A DNA stretch of 59,152 nt, counting the filler, from Sphacelaria rigidula (taxonomy: Eukaryota): the NCBI GenBank assembly GCA_964200075.2. It is 9 parts of 9 records of this genome, joined end to end, with 100 filler letters (N's around TTAATTAATTAA, not from the genome) between each part and the next. Parts side by side here need not be neighbours in the genome. Positions count along the whole stretch, not along the records: positions 39,504 to 45,986 come from CAXNAA020019809.1; 8 more parts are not named here. The stretch is one strand, 5' to 3'. Below, one piece after another: positions 297 to 49,000 of this stretch (the stretch's first letter is position 1; each line of letters begins with the position of its first letter). The position numbers were made by a program, and so were the translations under genes. The notes beneath the pieces were generated by a model. It saw nothing but the letters and a program-made list of their open reading frames with translations. It was not told where the DNA came from and ran no database searches.

Positions 297-3200
297 GGGG
301 ACGCCAGTGGATCAACCATGATACAAGCCTTCGCTGGGAGGCCCGTTATCCGAGCAAGCGCCGGCTACAATCATAGTGCCGCCATCACCTCCTCTGGTCG
401 ATTGTTCTCCTGGGGCAGCGCTGCTACGGGGAAGGTGCTTGGTTTCCAGCTGGCCGTATGGTTTCGCTTTTTATTCGGCAATATAACAAGGCGGACGTCT
501 TGAAGGGCTGGCGAGTATGCGGGGGGCAGGGGTTAAACGTGGTACATTATTATACTCTTACTTGTGGCTCCAACGGGGGAGACAGCAGAAATGACGCGGG
601 GATCTCGTTTTTTTATTTACTATATCCATATATCTATGAGCACACGTAGGTATGCCATCGATAGTTCGAGGGAAGGTTTGGAACGCACCCATAGCAATAG
701 TGGTTTGTGTCCGCGGAGCACCTGCTCATTACTCCCTTAATGTAAACACATGACCCTTCTTGTTTGACCTTGATCTAGATCTTCGTCTCAAGTGTTTTCT
801 ATACCTATATCGCCCCGTTGCCCTCATCCCTCGTCACAACCCTGTTTACCGTAATATTCTGCCGCGTGTGATTCGCGTGCGCAACAGCTTGGACTAGGAA
901 CGGTGGATCGAGACGTGTACTGCAGCGTGCCCACGAAGGTCATGCTGGACACAAAATCCAAGATCAAGGAAGTGAGCCTTCGAAATTACTATGGGCGAGG
1001 GGGAAGGGGGTGTACTCATGATCTCGCATGCCGTAGTCCTCTGATCGTTGACCGTACATCCCTACAAAGCCGTGACGGAGAACGCCGGGTTTCCGCCAGA
1101 CCGGGCTCGCAATCAATCACCAAGCGCGAAGCGCCGTGATGTGTTCGGTGAGTCGCATGAAAGGTGAGCTGCATCCTGCTAAGGTTGTTCGGCCCGAGGC
1201 CTACTGGTTATCTTGCATTTGGATGACAGCCTCGAATGAGTTGCTGTATTTTCTGGTATCGCCACTTGCAGATACAGCCACGGATTACACACTGTCTCAT
1301 GGGTATCTCACCATTTAAACACTACGTGGGATGATCATCCACTTTGCGCGAAATTGAGATTTTCCCATCCCGCAAAATGCGAATTAGCTCGAACGTTATC
1401 ATAGTGACCGCAAAAAAGAACACAAGCGCGCGAAAACAATCGTTAACCTGGTTGCCTAGGTTACACAGTGAGTGGCGTGTTTTACAGCGTCGTTGCAAAC
1501 CGACGCCAACCCGATGGGGGGGTGTACTCACGATCTTGCGTGTCATAGCCATATGACCGTTGACCTCGGGGGGGAGGGGGGGGGGGCGACTTCATTAACC
1601 TCAATAACTGCGTCGGCAAAAGATAATGTCGAAAAGGGCACGTAAAGTGGTTCTCCGTGAAGACAAATGGCAATCTTGATTCACTTTGGCCTGTCATGGC
1701 ACCCTATCCTTCTTCAGGAGATGCGAACGGTCATGCCACAGGGTTTTCTCACGGCAAACTGCAAGCACATTTGAATACGAACAAGCAGCAGAGCAGTGAC
1801 GCTGCAATCGCTCTTGAGTGTTCCCCGCGTGGTATTTCGCGCAGTACCTGAAATGCCACTGCGTAACCCCCCCACGACCGGTAGGTCAGCTGTGGAGCGG
1901 CGCACACAGCGTGTGTAGTAGCATCAGGACAATTGTTTGTGTGGGGCTGTGGCGACGGTGGGAGGCTGGGACTAGGGGAGCATAGGCTAGGCATACAGTT
2001 TGAGCCAATCTTGGTGGAAGCGCTGGTGGAGGAGAGATTCACTTCCGTCAGCTGCGGGAACTCTCACACCCTGGTAAAATGGCTTAGGCCACGATGGGAG
2101 CACGATGGGAGTACGATGAATCAGAGTCGCGATGAGTTCTATTACGTGCTTACCGTGGTGGAGTTTCGACCGGAGCAAATCCGTCGTGGTCGCCTTTTAT
2201 ACCTTGTGTGTGCGTGCCCGGGTGGAAATTGGAACATAATAGGTCAGATAATCACAATATGTACCTGCACGGGTGCTTCCATCATTTTCAACGTTTGACC
2301 CACGTCGGTAAGGTTTGTTGTTCTGATTGAAATCGTCGTCTGTCGTGCGGTATGGCCATCTCATGGTAAATTCTGCATGTGTGTGTGCCTATGTACGTAT
2401 AATAGCACCTAGAAGTATCGTCGTTTCTGGTGGGCGCTTTGTTGAGAGCCTGGGATAAGGAGAGAATCGTACGGGTTGTGCCCAAGTTCTGCTCTCTCAG
2501 TAGCGCATCTTGGCACAAATACTCAAGAACCGCACGCTCCATCTCATCATTCGCGTATACTATGCAAAATAGTACAAGGTTGCGTCCTGTAGGGTATACC
2601 GGATGAACTCATTACTAGGGTATATACACAAGTACAAGGGAGGTATTTCATCAGCAAATGCCCTTCCGAACCATATCGGATAGTTGGAACAGGGCTCGAT
2701 ACCCTGACGGACAATACCGGGATGTTCGGTATACATTTCGGTAGGTTTAGTATGCCAACCAAAAATCCCCGACGTCCGGGTATACCCGACAGACTACAAC
2801 CTTGAAATAATAGGATATCGTATCTCCCATATCTTGCCGCAAAACGCCCGAACGGAAAACAATTATCACAACCATAGTATCGTCATGCGCACATGTATGT
2901 TCTCGCTGTCCCTTTGTAATGCGTGAGAGGACCGCGTGCTTAGAGAACCGCATCAGAATTTAAACACCCTTATGGTTATGGTTAGGGTTAGTGTTAGTGT
3001 AGGGGTTGGGGTCAGGAGCGTGGTCCCTGCAGGGACTGGCCCGATTGGTTTTGAAAAAAGCCGATCCTGAGGTGTTTTGGACTACGACGCGATCCTCTAA
3101 GCACGCGGTCCTCTCACGCATTACACCTTGCCAAGCACTTCCACCCTTGCCGCTAACAAGAGCAGGAAAAGAAATGGCAACACGGGAAAGCACAGTCGAA

Positions 3201-6584: not shown

Positions 6585-6695
6585 CCCAAGTGTGGAGGGA
6601 TTTCTCACACACTTTAGAACCCTTTTTTTCGTCCAACCCAACCCCCCCCCCCCCCCCTATCGTAGGGTGACTCTAAGGCTCATGTCAAGACTCTC

Positions 6696-14733: not shown

Positions 14734-16394
14734 CACTTGGGCAAATATTCATTCCGTATGTTCTCTTCTTTGCCTCTACCACTGGCGTTTGATCACAGCG
14801 ACACGTCGATATCATACTGAGGGATATGAAGGGCCTCAGGGACAAGCTACTACAGATAACATGTAGTGCGTCGTGGAAGTGCATTTGAGAACTGAAATAT
14901 ATTATTCACTGATTGATCGCCTCACGCTCTCACTGTGTAGTATCTATTCTCGAGCTCACTAAAACACTGTCTATCACAGGAGACTTTGTTGAACTGTGTA
15001 CCTTGGTGGACACAGTTTATGCAAGTCCGGCATGCAGAGCTACACCTTTTGTACATGGATCAGTAATGCGAATGCATGCTCCTGTATTATGGACGGACTA
15101 TTGACAGGTGAGGTGGAAATAGTCCTGTAGACAAGGCTGTACCTACCGTGCTATTACTATACAGTCCAAATTATCATTTTTACAACAGACGTTTATCCGG
15201 GCGTTGACCTGGAGTTCAACGCACACAGTAGTTGGGGAAGAAACATCTAACACCGTCATATCTACTCAACACTTCACGAAAGCATGTTTAAATTATCAAT
15301 AGATGTATCTCAAACTCGGCTCAGGTCCAGTACTGTGATTTTCTTTTCATCGTCATCGATTTGGGAGTACAATGACTGCTTTGTTGCAGCGAATGTGACG
15401 AGCACATGAGAGCAAATAAGTTCAAAACAATTGATCATTGCCCTGGCCTTTGTCAGCAACAAACACAAGTCGAATGATTTGGAAAATCTTCTGTTTCGCA
15501 CTTGAAACGTTTAACCCTTAGACCGCGAGGTTAGTCTTCTGTTGAATCGGCATCAATTTCAAGTGAAAAAAAGTATGCATGATCCAGAAAGACTAATCTC
15601 GCGATGTAAGGGTTGACCCTTAGACCGCGAGGGTAGTCTTATCTGGATCATGCGTACGTTTTTCAAGTGAAATTGATGCCGACTCAACAGATGACCTACT
15701 CTCGCTGTCTCAGGGTGAACCCTTAGACCGCAAGATTAGTCTTTCTGGATCATGCATACTTTTTTTCACTTAAAATTGATGCCGATTCAACAGAAAACTA
15801 ACCTCGCGGTCTAAGGATTAACACAGTCATACCTACGTCATGCCCATTCACTTGAAAAAATAGTACAAAGAGCCAGCGAATAAACCAGGAAACCGGGAGC
15901 AAAGTTGGATATACCTCCAAAGAGTTCAAACTGTACGGTCATGCGAACTCAACAGTCGTGGTTGCTCTACGTGGACGAAACGTACGAACCCAACAGCGTG
16001 ATCATTCTTCGTTGACCAGACTCGGTCCTGTCCATAGAAACGTTTGACCACGAGGAAAGTTCCTCGGGTGTCGGCTTGACTGCTATAAACAACATTTTCG
16101 TGAAATCGAGAGTAGAGCAGTAGGGCGTCGATTGACAGTGGCTTTGATCATTCGATTACACTTGGTCAAATATTCATTCCGCGTGTACTCTTCTTTGCCT
16201 CCATCACCGGCGCGTGCTTTCAGTGACACGTCGATATCATAATGAGGGATGTCAAGGGCCTCAGGGGCAAGCTACTACAGAGAGCATATAGTGCGTCGTG
16301 GAGGTGCATTTCGGAACTGAAATAAATCATCCACATATTGACTGCTTGACGCTCTCATTGTGTAGCGTTCACTCTCAAGCTCACGAAAACACTG
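14734..16394 (+). repeat. Diverged direct repeat pair of about 235 bp (14734-14970 and 16159-16394)
   Basis: Both copies share CACTTGG.CAAATATTCATTCCG...GACACGTCGATATCAT...AAGGGCCTCAGGG.CAAGCTACTACAGA...AAAACACTG. Confidence 0.85.
15511..15821. mobile_element. Trimer of about 98-bp piggyBac-like MITEs
   Basis: Units 15515-15612, 15617-15715 and 15720-15817 each start CCCTTAGACCGC and end in an imperfect complement. They are bounded by TTAA/TTGA/TGAA/TTAA. Unit 1 is inverted relative to units 2 and 3. Confidence 0.85.
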
Positions 16395-29701: not shown

Positions 29702-29917
29702 ACTTGGGACACCAATGGTGGCCACGGACGGCGAAACAGGGCTGGAATAAGGTATGTAGAGGGATTTTGTGTAATCTATGTCATGAACTTTATGAACACC
29801 CCACTGTTGGAGGTGTCTCCATTACGAGTAAGAGCGGCACTCCGTGTCGAAAGGGATGCGTGGTCAACGGTGAAACGACAAAGGCAATCAACAATTGAGT
29901 CTCCCCCCCCTCCCCCC
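29702..29917 (+). mobile_element. 5'-truncated LINE 3' end (poly(C)-ended family)
   Basis: Encodes WWPRTAKQG...VGGVSITSKSGTPCRKGCVVNGETTKAINN*, homologous to the ORF2 end at 45460-45900. It is followed by GTCT and a C-tract. Confidence 0.85.
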
Positions 29918-32920: not shown

Positions 32921-32961
32921 AGCAACAAATGAGTACGCCCCCCCCCCCTCCCCCCCTCCCC
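32921..32961 (+). mobile_element. LINE 3' terminus + poly(C) at contig start
   Basis: AGCAACAAATGAGTACG + C-tract; the junction is identical to 45889-45906. Confidence 0.8.
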
Positions 32962-37931: not shown

Positions 37932-38667
37932 TAAGGGCAGGTCCATTAGGGTATGTACTTTCAAGTACTCGGGGTAAAATACCCGGGTATTTACTCTACC
38001 CAGGGTCTGGGTAGATTGGGTACGGCCTCGATACTCTACCCAAATTTCGGGTAGATTGGGTTTGGCCTAAATTACTCGGTCCGAAGGTTGGGTAGATTGG
38101 GTACAAAATCGAATGCACAACCCAAACTTTGGGTGAGCATTCGCAGCAATACTTGGGTGTAGAGTACCACTTGGGTATGACCTCAATACTCTACCCAAAA
38201 TTTGGGTAGATTGGGTACGACCTCAAATACTTCACCCAATGTTTGAGTAGATTGGATACAATCTCAAATACTCTGCCAACATTTTAGGTAGGGTGGATAC
38301 GACCTCAAATACTATACCCAAATATCGGGTAAGCAATCTCAGCAATGCCTGGATACAGATTATCACTTGGGTAATTTATGACCTTAATACTCTACCCAAC
38401 TTTCGGGTAGAATGGGCACGACCCCAATACTCTACTCAAATACTGGGTAGGAACTCCAATTTATACCTGGGTATAAAGTTATCACTTGGGTATGACCTCA
38501 ACACTATACGCAAAATTTGGGTAAGTTGGGTATTACCTCCAATACTATACACAAAGTTTGGGTAGATTGGGTACGACCTTAAATAATGTACTATATCCAA
38601 ACGTTTGGGTACGAGTACACTTTTCAAAGTACCGAGTATTGGGTGTAATCTACCCGGCCTGCCCTTG
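37932..38667. mobile_element. hAT-like non-autonomous element filled with palindromic tandem repeats of about 40 bp
   Basis: Termini TAAGGGCAGG / CCTGCCCTTG, with flanks AACATTAA / CAAATTAA. The interior has roughly 15 degenerate units of TTGGGTAGATTGGGTACGACCTCAATACTCTACCCAAA. Confidence 0.7.
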
Positions 38668-44170: not shown

Positions 44171-44473
44171 GTAGGGCGAACTGCTGGGAGGACGAGGAAC
44201 GGTTGTACTGTTCGCTCTTTCTAGCACTTTGCATGTCTACGTGCGATAAAAAATGTTGATAAGAGTGATTCCGCGATAGCACCCCCCCCCCCCCCCCCTC
44301 CGCCATCCCCCCACCACAGCCCTCCCCCCCCCCATGCCCCCACCGCACCACNNNNNNNNNNTTTTTTTTTTTTTTTTTTTTCTTTTTTTTTTTCTCTTCC
44401 TAAAAAAAATTTTTATAAAGTTTTTCCCCCCGTACCCCCCCCCCCCCCCCCCCCCCCCTCCCCTCCCCTCTTC

Positions 44474-45952
44474 GAAGAGGAAATGCCGATCATAGACCAG
44501 TATACATACCTTGACGTAGAGATATCAAGAAACTGTTCTTGGGATGCCCACATGAATGAAGTTATAGAAAAGGGCAAGGCGCAGATAAGAAGGATGAACG
44601 TGGTCCTTAGAGACTCGCACCTAGACACTAGGATTAAGAGATGTATCCTGATGAACATGATCGTACCAAAGCTGGAATGTGCAGGAGAAGTATGGGAAGG
44701 GAGCGTGAAGTTGACGAAGAAGTTGGAAACAGTACAGATGGCAACGGCTAAGAAGATACTTGGATGCTCGAAAACGACGAGGAATACAGTTTTGAGAGCA
44801 GAGTTGGGAATGTACTCACTTAATTTAAAACAAACAGAGGCGTGAGGAAATTGAGGCGGCAATATAGCGTAAAGAAGATGCAGAGAAAGAGATTGCCAGC
44901 TATAGTTGATAGGGCTGTATGTAAGAAAAAATCTAAAAGGAAGGGTACAAGATGGGATAGAGAAGTCGAAAAAGTATGAAAGGAGATAGGAGAAACCCAA
45001 GACGAAATACTGTCCATAGGTGAAGGCGCGGGGTACAAGACAAAATTAAGAGATACGATCGAAATAAGGGGAAAAGGAGCGCTCAGGCGCAGAGTAGACG
45101 AGAAAGAAAACCTGAAGATATACGGGTGGTTGAGAGAGAGGATCGGGATGAAAACATATCTGCATGGCCCAATGGACGCGACGAAAAAATAGAAAGTGCG
45201 ATTTCGGGAGGGGGACCTGGACCTGCCAGAAAGAAGAAAGAGATATACCAGTAGTCGAAAGGAGGAGGAAGTAGGTGCACAGAACTGCCCCTGGGCAAAG
45301 CAATAGAGAAATTAACTCATATGGCTGCAGAATGTGAACTATACCAGAGGGAACGAGACGTGCTAGAGGGGGAAAGGAAATGCGGGACGTGAACGAAGAT
45401 GGGATGAAGTCGTTTGATGCATTAGACAGTAGAGAGAAAATGATTGCTATGCTAGAAGATAGATTGCGGCCACAGACGGCGAAACAGGACGGGGATAAGA
45501 TATGTAAAATGGCACTCTCTACGATAGCCCCCCCCAAAAAAACAGCCCAAAGGTGTCGCGGAAAAAATGGTCATACAGAACCTGATGTTTGGTTTTAGGC
45601 TGCATGAAGCGCTTCATATGGGCGACATCGGTGAGAACGAACCCAAGCGTGGGAATTCCCAGCTGCTCGTTATGCTCGGCTTTTTCCATTTCGATTTACG
45701 CGAACATTTTGCCTCTCCAAACCAGGCACGTTTTTTGGGGGGGCTATTGTAGAAAGTGTCAAATGTTTTCGTGCAATGAATGGAAGAAACGTAATGAGCG
45801 CCGGAATGTTGGAGGTGTCTCTATTAGAAGTAGGAGGGGTGCTCCGGCTCGAGAGGGATGCGTGGTCAACGGTCAAACGACTAAGGCGAGCAACAAATGA
45901 GTACGCCCCCCCGCCCCCCCCCCCCCCCCCCCCCCCCCCTCCCCCCCCGCCC
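44474..45952 (+). mobile_element. 5'-truncated LINE (ORF2 RT thumb and C-terminal region, disrupted) ending in poly(C)
   Basis: PIIDQYTYLDVEISRNCSWDAHM...MIVPKLECAGEVW...LETVQMATAKKILGCSKTTRNTVLRAELG is typical of the non-LTR RT C-terminus. Stops and frameshifts are present. The ORF ends KASNK* at 45900, then GTACG and about 45 nt of C-rich tract. The 5' flank is also a C-tract. Confidence 0.9.
45511..45760. mobile_element. 250-bp MITE with 4-bp TSD inserted in the LINE
   Basis: TIRs GGCACTCTCTACGATAGCCCCCC.. / ..GGGGGGCTATTGTAGAAAGTGTC. AAAT is duplicated at 45507-45510 and 45761-45764. Excision restores DKICKMFSCNEWKKRNER. Confidence 0.85.
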
Positions 45953-46086
45953 GCACGAGCCCAACGTTCCGAGAACACAGCAGCCCNNNNNNNNNNNNNN
46001 NNNNNNNNNNNNNNNNNNNNNNNNNNNNNNTTAATTAATTAANNNNNNNNNNNNNNNNNNNNNNNNNNNNNNNNNNNNNNNNNNNN

Positions 46087-49000
46087 ATCTGTGTCCCAAG
46101 CTTCACAGGTGGGCGCTCCGACTCAAGGAGTACGACATGGAACTTCGATGGCAGGAGGGAACTCAACAGGTGTTACCTGACGCTATGTCCCGCCTGCCTC
46201 ATCAACAGGGACCAGGAGATGACATAGACGGCTCATTCCCCGACGATTTTACCGCCAGCACATCCTCGGAAACCGCAAGGTCTTGCGGTCCACAATTAGA
46301 CGGAAAACGGTTGTCAGAATTGTCACCTTTTGATGTCACGGGAGAAGGCAAGATTATAGATGAGGCGAGATACGTAAGCACCTCGCGATCGCTCCCGTCC
46401 GCTGACTGCGCGTCGATAGAAGACGAATCACCCCGTCGTTCCCCCAGAACTCGCCGTCCGTCCGTACGCTTGCAGTTCCCAGGCGCTGCTCGCATACATT
46501 CCGTGCCCACAGATGTTCAGATGAACCTTCAGCCGTCGGTAGGTATCACAACTATTGAAGCCCCAACGAGGGAGCCTACTCCCATCACCCCTGCTCCAGT
46601 CAGTGAGAGGCCGGAGGTGGAAGAGGTGCTCATCGCCGGGGGGGACAAACCCTCGTCTACGGTGAAAACTGCAGTAGACACGTCGGCATTCAAGAGGGCG
46701 ATCCAGATGTTGACAAACGCATCCGCGCTGAAACGCGCACAGGAGGAGGACCCGTTCCTGGGGCAGGTGAGATCGATACTAAAGGGAGAGGAGGAACACT
46801 GTATGAAGGGCAAGGATGGCAAGAGGCGACGAGTGCAGACGAGGTGCAGGGGGGAAAGAAGGTACCCAATACGAGCGATGCAGACTGCGAGAGTACGGTG
46901 AGTACAGACGAGGTGCAGCGGGAAAAGGAGGTGCACAATACGAGTGATGCAGACTGCGAGATTGTGGCGAGTGCCGACGAGGTACCAGAGGAACCCAGTA
47001 CGGAAAATGATGTCAGGATTAGGGTGAGTGACGACGTTGCACACCAATACAGTCTGGACGATCAAGGTGTGGCGTGGCTAACGAAGGACACTAAAAAAAA
47101 CGTTGCTAGCCATCCCCTCGGTTATGGTACCTGACATCTTGGCGTTGGTACACTCCCTACATGGTCATATCGGAGTAGGAGCCACGCTGTCTTTGATGCG
47201 AGATCGCTTTTTCCGGCCGTCAGTTGTAAAGGATACCAGACTATGCGTGTTATCTTGCAGCTGTAGAAGGAGGAAGAGGTCGAATAGCTGTAAGATTGCA
47301 ATGACACCGGGACGAGCCGTAGAACCATGGGAAGAGTTGGAGATGGACCTGCTGAGTATAGACACTGCATCGCTTACGAACAACAAGTACATTATTTTGA
47401 TCGTAGACCGAGCCTCCAATTTTCCCTTCGGCTTCCCACTTCAAACGAAGCAGGCTGAAAGTATAGCTCGCATCCTTGCTGAACTCTGGTTGACATTCGG
47501 CGTCCCCCGCAAAATCCGCTGTGATGGAGGAAAGGAATTTAGAGCTGAGGTGGTGACACACCTGTGCAGGTGGCTGAAAAGCAGACATTGCTTTTGGGCC
47601 CTCCGACCACCCCAGAAACCAAGGAGCAGTCGAGAGGCTGGGGGGGTGGCTACTAGACATGCTAGCAGAGCTGTGTAGGCCGTGGCCCCAGAGATGGGAC
47701 GAGTACGTCTCCCCAGCGCTCTAGATCAAGCGTACCTTGCCAGACATTCCCCTTCCCGCAGACATGTTCCCGTTTGAGCTTTTGTTCGGTCGTGAACCCC
47801 GCACCTCTCTAGATTCGCTCATTCCCCTGAACCAGGAGAAGGAATCAAGTAGCGGTCTGGATGCCTTCGTGGAGCAACGTAGACAAAACCTCAAGGACGT
47901 ACGTCTAGCTCTTCACAAAAGACACGCCGCAAAAGCATTGACTCGTGCGAAGATGAACGCCTCAATTTTGAGACCTTCTCCCGGAGTGGCGGCGAGAGAA
48001 GGGGATCTGGTCATGGTATGCGAATCGGACAGCAAGATACATCGGGACGGTAAGGGTAGAAAACTGCAACACGAAAGGTACACGCGGCCCTGGAGAGTGA
48101 AGGAAGTGCTGATGACCGGCCTCAGTGTAGAGGTAGTCATGCAGGGGCGCAAACGTCGTACACGTAGAGTAGCAGTCTCTGACGTGAAACCCTTCCATGT
48201 TCGCCCACCGCATGTCAGGCACTCGATAGCCGACGAGTTCGCTCAATACGTATGGGGTTCAGATTGCACATCCAACACTACTCCTCCCCAAACTCACGAG
48301 TTCGTCACTTTGGTGGACTGCCGAGAGATCTACTCCATAACCGGCACGGAACAATGGGAACACGAGGCCAGGTCGTTGGAGGGGAAGATGTCAGACTGGT
48401 TGCCAGAGAGCCAGCTCTGAAACAGCCTTTCCCCTTTGGAAGTAGACGCTTTCCACGCACTTTGGCACCTGTACAACCCCGTAGTTGCACACAATCCGCC
48501 CCCGCACTCCAAGAAGCACCCTGCTCCCCTGTAGCGCAGTGATGCCTTGAAGCTTTTCCCAATAGGTGATACTTTCTGGAAAGACTTTCGAGGTCTTAAG
48601 GTCAAGGGTCAGGTATATGACTACGGGAGTCGCTTTTGGCGAGTACGATACGAGGACGGAGACTGGGAGGAGCTATCCCGCCAGGAAGTAGACCGCTTAA
48701 CGCGGGAAAAAAGACCCCGACTTTAGACTGGAGTGGGAATGTCTAGGAATAGTCGGTATATGAAATGGTACAGGATATCATTGCACAGGGAAGGGGGTTG
48801 TAAAATAAGCAAGAAGAAGTGTTAGTACCGTACTCTTCAGTGTTAATTGCGATTGTGCCTGTTTTCTATTTTTTTTGTCGTTCCTTGGCCTTGTCTGGTT
48901 CCCATTTTGTTACATGTCAATACATTTATGAATCAAGGCGCATGGGCTCTATTTTTCGTAGCATAAACATCAGTAGTTACAGGAAAGCACTTCCCAATAG

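Follow-up and report, generated by a model that had tools for sequence, protein, structure and literature searches.

L1-like LINEs usually end in poly(A) or an A-rich 3' tail. A different kind of end is already in print in the notes of a transposable-element table for Ectocarpus sp. 7 (PMC12477816), where the family RTEX-1_Ec32 is described as "single EN-RT ORF; (C)n 3'" and RTEX-2_Ec32 as having "(C)n termini/TSD". The same table gives the target-site duplications (TSDs) of the RTEX families as "C-rich", calls the families very abundant, and lists RTEX-N1, a non-autonomous partner of 607 bp with a 60-bp 3' end in common with RTEX; the partner can occur in tandem. An annealing logic for insertion into homopolymers has been proposed by the authors who described the poly-A-targeting LINE Zorro3 (PMC1965478). 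Here we analyse a LINE family of Sphacelaria rigidula that ends in a C-tract, is accompanied by a non-coding partner, and on our analysis probably targets C-runs.

The window analysed, a stretch of 59,152 nt, is made of nine unrelated contigs of ~6.48 kb with N-linkers between them, from an assembly of 244 Mb in 27,214 contigs. An earlier note on this DNA had reported a LINE whose stop codon is followed by only a few bases and then by a C-tract, with seven such junctions on five unrelated contigs; all seven are present, on five of the window's nine contigs. The main copy (44474..45905, +) is a decayed, 5'-truncated LINE that aligns by tblastn with residues 973-1360 of a full-length relative, P0002, and comprises the RT thumb and the C-terminal zinc-knuckle region. 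Its reading frame, ...GCVVNGQTTKASNK, is closed as the note had it by TGA at 45898-45900 (...TTKASNK*), after which come GTACG and a 3' tract of the form C7-G-C26-T-C8 (45906..45952, +). The copy is dead, with stops and frameshifts, and harbors a 250-bp MITE (45511..45760, strand unassigned) with C-runs in its terminal inverted repeats and a 4-bp duplication, AAAT. Seven fragments of it gave no Pfam match; the copy is without the RT core. Three further LINE ends are a degenerate 3' fragment with its C-tract (29720..29917, +), a 17-nt 3' stub cut by a contig start and followed by a C-tract (32921..32961, +), and a 24-nt stub cut by a contig end and ending in C12 (39367..39403, -). Elsewhere in the window, open frames at 46035-47134, at the start of the next contig, resemble an LTR-retrotransposon pol fragment and are unrelated to the LINE; a 126-nt inverted repeat (92%, 59-nt spacer) lies at 15511-15821 and an array of ~40-nt tandem repeats at 37992-38604.

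The remaining junctions, 999(-), 1516(-) and 19581(-), had been counted among the LINE copies. They form no LINE subfamily but belong to a non-coding partner element of ~560 bp that has only its last ~65 nt in common with the LINE and whose head repeats its own subterminal ~45 nt. In the window the partner is represented by a nearly full-length copy with a C-tract that is without ~60 nt of the 5' head (996..1515, -), by a 45-nt 3' fragment with C-runs on both sides that is stacked on the 5' end of that copy (1516..1586, -), and by a 3' fragment with a C-rich tract that is cut by a contig end (19581..19652, -). Genome-wide, 2,038 exact partner ends were found, with NCCY as the next bases in 1,613. 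An Rfam search of five loci, three of them with long partner copies, returned one miRNA match at chance level; in these decayed copies it thus lends no support to a tRNA-, 5S- or 7SL-derived head, as in a Pol III SINE, or to a module that contains a known ribozyme.

A further repeat, starting (T)ATCGTAG(G), often follows C-runs, LINE tails included (6642-6680 in the window; L072:3205-3230; L029; L008), and is possibly another C-run-associated family. Telomere-like TTAGGG units form filler at one 5' junction (L086:1440-1460) and occur in one joined contig; these may be chance, a flanking repeat or telomerase-type healing.

Longer genomic copies show what the LINE is. They carry an APE endonuclease, a reverse transcriptase (RT) and a C-terminal zinc-knuckle-like motif: RVT_1 scored above the Pfam cut-off in copies L062 and L041, the nine PDB matches were R2, L1 or RT entries, and APE motifs are visible in L067, L072 and L078, the Pfam APE score being below cut-off in decayed copies. 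Two full-length relatives, P0002 (1,360 aa) and P0003 (1,328 aa), have both RT and APE above cut-off, end in the LINE's C-terminal peptide and are colinear with the genomic copies as one ORF. Residues 1-1358 of P0002 run colinearly over copy L078, which points to a single EN-RT ORF rather than the second-ORF layout implied by the earlier label "ORF2", though a further ORF may lie upstream of it. The two longest copies match up to a contig start, leaving the true 5' end of the family beyond them, and none of the loci examined holds an intact LINE copy. RT, APE, a fixed 3' end with the varying 5' truncations that the note had reported, and a target duplication of variable length are the features of an APE-type non-LTR retrotransposon. 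The element is a LINE with an APE endonuclease and a reverse transcriptase, and five bases separate its stop codon from the C-tract.

The closest named protein matches are from Ectocarpus, at up to 64% identity, and the protein cluster of P0003 includes Ectocarpus proteins. A likely brown-algal host is indicated by the named matches and by the label algae metagenome on one public run that contains the sequence. The protein homology and the matching anatomy suggest that the LINE is of the RTE-X type and belongs with the Ectocarpus families of that type. Like RTEX-1/2_Ec32 and RTEX-N1/N2_Ec32 as tabulated, it is abundant, has a single EN-RT ORF, a (C)n end and a C-rich target duplication, and has a partner close to 600 bp that shares its 3' end (~65 nt here, 60 bp there). 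The likeness is judged by anatomy and protein homology. The Sphacelaria copies differ in being decayed and about 80-90% alike; according to the table's paper, most TE copies of Ectocarpus are young. More distant homologues (P0015-P0017), about 38% identical across the ORF, retain a terminal peptide, GCVV(N/A)G, that matches the 3' module of the LINE, which, judged from peptides, hints at a deeply conserved RNA element.

Does the C-tract really mark the end of the element? An exact 20-mer of the LINE 3' end has 4,150 genomic matches, followed by NCCC in 3,334 and by three A/T bases in just 7; the reversed-pattern control gave 0. Among the 3' ends retrieved, a C4 run begins within 15 nt in 128 of 136 and an A6 run within 40 nt in 3 of 136, and the C content, about 0.9 just past the end, is down to background some 40 nt on. 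Searching 193 kb of sampled contigs with a profile gave 20 ends, of LINE or partner, and 0 in reversed sequence; extrapolated, this amounts to roughly 25,000 ends genome-wide. The earlier claims of almost no 3' UTR and no poly(A) tail therefore hold for the family. It could still be argued that the tract is internal to a longer, poly(A)-ended 3' UTR, or that it is an artefact of sequencing or assembly, given how fragmented the assembly is and how many ends coincide with contig breaks. When 3' ends are aligned, however, homology stops at the C-run, as the note had anticipated: past the tract the copies have unrelated sequences, which match the 5' flank. In contigs from four public runs, one of which may be the assembly's own source, the loose ends just past the element are all C-runs among the matches listed, and depth collapses there. 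LINE copies in two records of a metagenome collection end in C-runs too, and the near-gapless Ectocarpus assembly is annotated alike in the table cited above. An internal or artefactual tract is scarcely credible against this evidence; the C-tract is neither, and the C-ended LINE is real and unusual in comparison with textbook LINEs.

The earlier note had further read the tract as a C-tail. That a C-tract stands at the end is correct, but is it a tail or a piece of the target? From 202 ends we obtained 85 copies that were short (at most 130 nt) and could be read in both flanks, and set aside 14 that had been chosen for their location in a MITE. In 57 of the resulting 71, a C4 run lies within 25 nt upstream, against a background of 6.8%. 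A duplication of at least 8 nt with at least 3 non-C bases flanks 31 of the 71, against 2.4% of 4,942 mismatched pairs; it takes in part of the C-run and, downstream of the run, unique bases numbering 6 in the median (range about 3-13). No clear duplication is seen at the 8-nt threshold in 40 of the 71, and longer, older copies give a weaker signal (upstream C-run in 23 of 41). The main window copy has a C-rich tract directly 5' of its truncation point (44426..44473, +), likely the target run, and thus C-tracts on both sides, yet a unique-base duplication cannot be recognised for it. These counts make the C-tract largely a duplicated target site, not a pure tail, and the pairing of a C-rich target duplication with a (C)n 3' end is that noted for the RTE-X families of Ectocarpus.

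Empty sites known in advance, a comparison that the earlier note had proposed for finding duplications, are provided by the MITE, because its inverted repeats hold a C-run. This element is 250 bp long, with inverted repeats of ~17 bp followed by C-runs and with apparent 4-bp duplications, and has 2,495 exact ends genome-wide; no GACAC terminus appears among the entries consulted in the Ectocarpus TE table (PMC12477816). The terminal module sits inside the MITE C-run at 31 of the 2,495 ends, with varied junctions, whereas 0.8 would be expected for 6,000 randomly placed modules (the real count is 5,267). Runs that carry a module are longer, being C10 or more in 18 of 31 against 786 of 2,495 overall (p=0.002, counted from the list). 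Of 20 such insertions examined, 7 break off without reaching the 3' end, 2 stop at a contig edge just past it, and in 11 the MITE sequence resumes after a second C-run, that is, in 11 of the 13 with the 3' end inside the locus. Because MITE sequence resumes past a second C-run at known empty sites, the C-run must have been present before insertion and been duplicated.

Is the whole tract then target? A reading under which it is pure target duplication would have the element RNA end in GTAC(G), or carry a poly(A) that is skipped, with extra C's arising by later expansion or assembly error. It agrees with the target-derived runs of the MITE insertions, and the 31 duplications go some way with it: the 3' tract equals the target run in 10 and is shorter in 10, so that 20 tracts do not outrun their target, and two copies join their target without any C-tract, as if primed by microhomology. 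The other 11 have 3' tracts that surpass the target run by at least 3 nt, although "longer than target" is a soft measure for homopolymers, whose lengths drift and mis-assemble. Several targets with 2-6 C's have C-rich 3' tracts of 8-19 nt (one has 3 C's and a 13-nt tract), which is too much for drift, and 80% of exact ends run straight into NCCC. We regard pure duplication as unlikely. The 11 longer tracts imply that some of the C's likely come with the element, from its RNA or by slippage.

Such C's could in principle be a true non-templated poly(C) tail, added to the RNA by an enzyme of the host or the element, with C-runs then targeted by annealing at existing nicks. The 11 tracts with more C's than their targets would fit, and polycytidylation has a precedent in Chlamydomonas mitochondrial mRNAs, as reported in PMC5727444. 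Against this, 3' tracts are often broken by T, G or A, as genomic C-rich tracts are, 20 of 31 do not surpass the target in length, two copies lack a tract altogether, and read-through or slippage accounts for the extra C's with no new enzyme. A tail of this kind is quite unlikely in our judgement.

We consider it probable that the family is instead a C-run-targeting LINE that nicks the G strand and primes on C's at its RNA end, a model drawn from the sequence features above. The abundant LINE and its partner would insert into existing C-runs and duplicate them. The APE endonuclease would nick the G strand, either within the G-run or beside it, and the freed, G-ended strand would anneal to C's at the end of the RNA and prime reverse transcription, so that the G-tract priming suggested in the earlier note is a likely mechanism, in line with the C-run insertions and duplications. 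The C's of the RNA would come from transcription that reads through into the copy's own flanking C-tract, with slippage adding more. A second nick would fall about 6 nt past the run. The last 65 nt may fold into a structure that the RT recognises, the cDNA often being joined just past this module by microhomology. Each insertion would turn one C-run into two and so make new targets; because each event would leave two C-runs, copies should be found stacked in each other's tails, and such stacking is seen. As an observation beside this, at 7 of 13 loci a long partner begins in or just after the C-tract of a LINE 3' end (L002, L012, L028, L034, L075, L119, L187), a biased count, as these loci were chosen for LINE ends.

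In its annealing logic the model follows that for Zorro3 in Candida albicans, an L1-type LINE that likewise inserts into homopolymer tracts and has tracts on both sides, and for which nicking of the complementary strand and annealing to the RNA tail were proposed (PMC1965478). As described there, Zorro3 differs in using poly-A/poly-T where the present element uses poly-C/poly-G, in having two ORFs, and in making no sizeable unique-flank duplication. Insertion at (C)n is also described for the Chlamys elements (PMC8557442), which use (CA)n as well; these are Penelope-like, with a GIY-YIG endonuclease and pseudo-LTRs, and their RT and endonuclease are unrelated to those of the LINE.

The terminal ~65-nt module common to LINE and partner (45840..45904, +, in the main window copy) overlaps the last codons of the LINE and is predicted to form two hairpins in a junction closed by the module's own two ends. 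It is also a size class of its own. An unbiased pattern search gave 31 LINE ends, of which 4 that ran into contig ends or gaps were set aside; among the 27 whose junction could be read, 14 were 61-66 nt long, so about half of the unbiased LINE copies are the 65-nt piece alone. Genome-wide, 790 of 2,950 exact matches keep the exact six LINE bases upstream of the module's 5' edge, divergence explaining part of the gap, and among the matches listed C-rich loose ends occur at this edge in two runs. A separate mini-family with diagnostic bases was sought without success: 39 short and 75 long copies agree in majority sequence and diverge to a similar degree (p=0.32), a handful of the 39 "short" copies being misclassified long ones. 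Because short and long copies have one majority sequence, a truncation hot spot is favoured over a separate family.

Set against the predicted fold, majority differences between LINE and partner fall at 1 of 40 paired but 10 of 25 unpaired positions (Fisher p=1.5e-4), this being one comparison of related sequences. The fold has a z of about -1.3, the best fold of the partner keeps the first hairpin alone, and RNAalifold on 33 ends, whose alignment was misaligned across the first hairpin, yielded a consensus that was weak (-2.8 kcal/mol) and in which no pair covaried on both sides. We treat the predicted structure as a lead, weakly supported by these folds. A bolder reading would make the terminal 65 nt a structured RNA that propagates itself as a micro-retroelement, truly C-tailed and mobilised by an APE endonuclease that reads G-runs, within a G-primed system that breeds its own targets and shapes the C/G homopolymers of brown algae; it is speculative, and we think it doubtful as a whole.

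How much of the genome's C-run content can be laid to this family? The suggestion that it is a major source of C/G homopolymers proved overstated. There are 45,686 runs of C10 or more or G10 or more genome-wide, and 2,268 of them (5%) directly follow the end motif, and we rejected this family as the origin of most long C-runs. A sample of 251 kb, made up of the window and 20 other stretches, contained 50 runs; automatic scoring placed 8 of them at an element end and inspection by eye 5 more, giving 13 of 50, of which about half are pre-existing targets; traces of very old insertions would escape this count. The family is a contributor to the C-runs, not their main visible source. The companion claim, that these elements break the assembly, stands in part: contig breaks do have an excess of ends, with 12 of the 100 listed first falling within the first 100 bases of contigs >20 kb, but the break is often inside the repeated module and not in the C-run.

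That a LINE can end in C's is thus already in print in the Ectocarpus table notes, while the 65-nt class, the geometry of the duplication and the evidence from empty sites appear to be new detail. The RTEX_Ec32 descriptions, in their tabulated form, give no duplication geometry, empty-site test, ~65-nt class or 3' structure. In the open-access literature, with Repbase notes outside its scope, we found no main-text account of C-tailed LINEs and none of the duplication geometry, 65-nt class, empty-site evidence or priming step of C-ended LINEs.

If the proposed mechanism is right, homopolymer-primed retrotransposition would be extended from A/T to C/G tracts. It points to an APE endonuclease with a predicted preference for G-runs, which could be tested in vitro, and offers a candidate 65-nt minimal cis element for recognition by the RT that overlaps coding sequence. 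In genomes of this kind it would also account for some of the long C/G runs and contig breaks.
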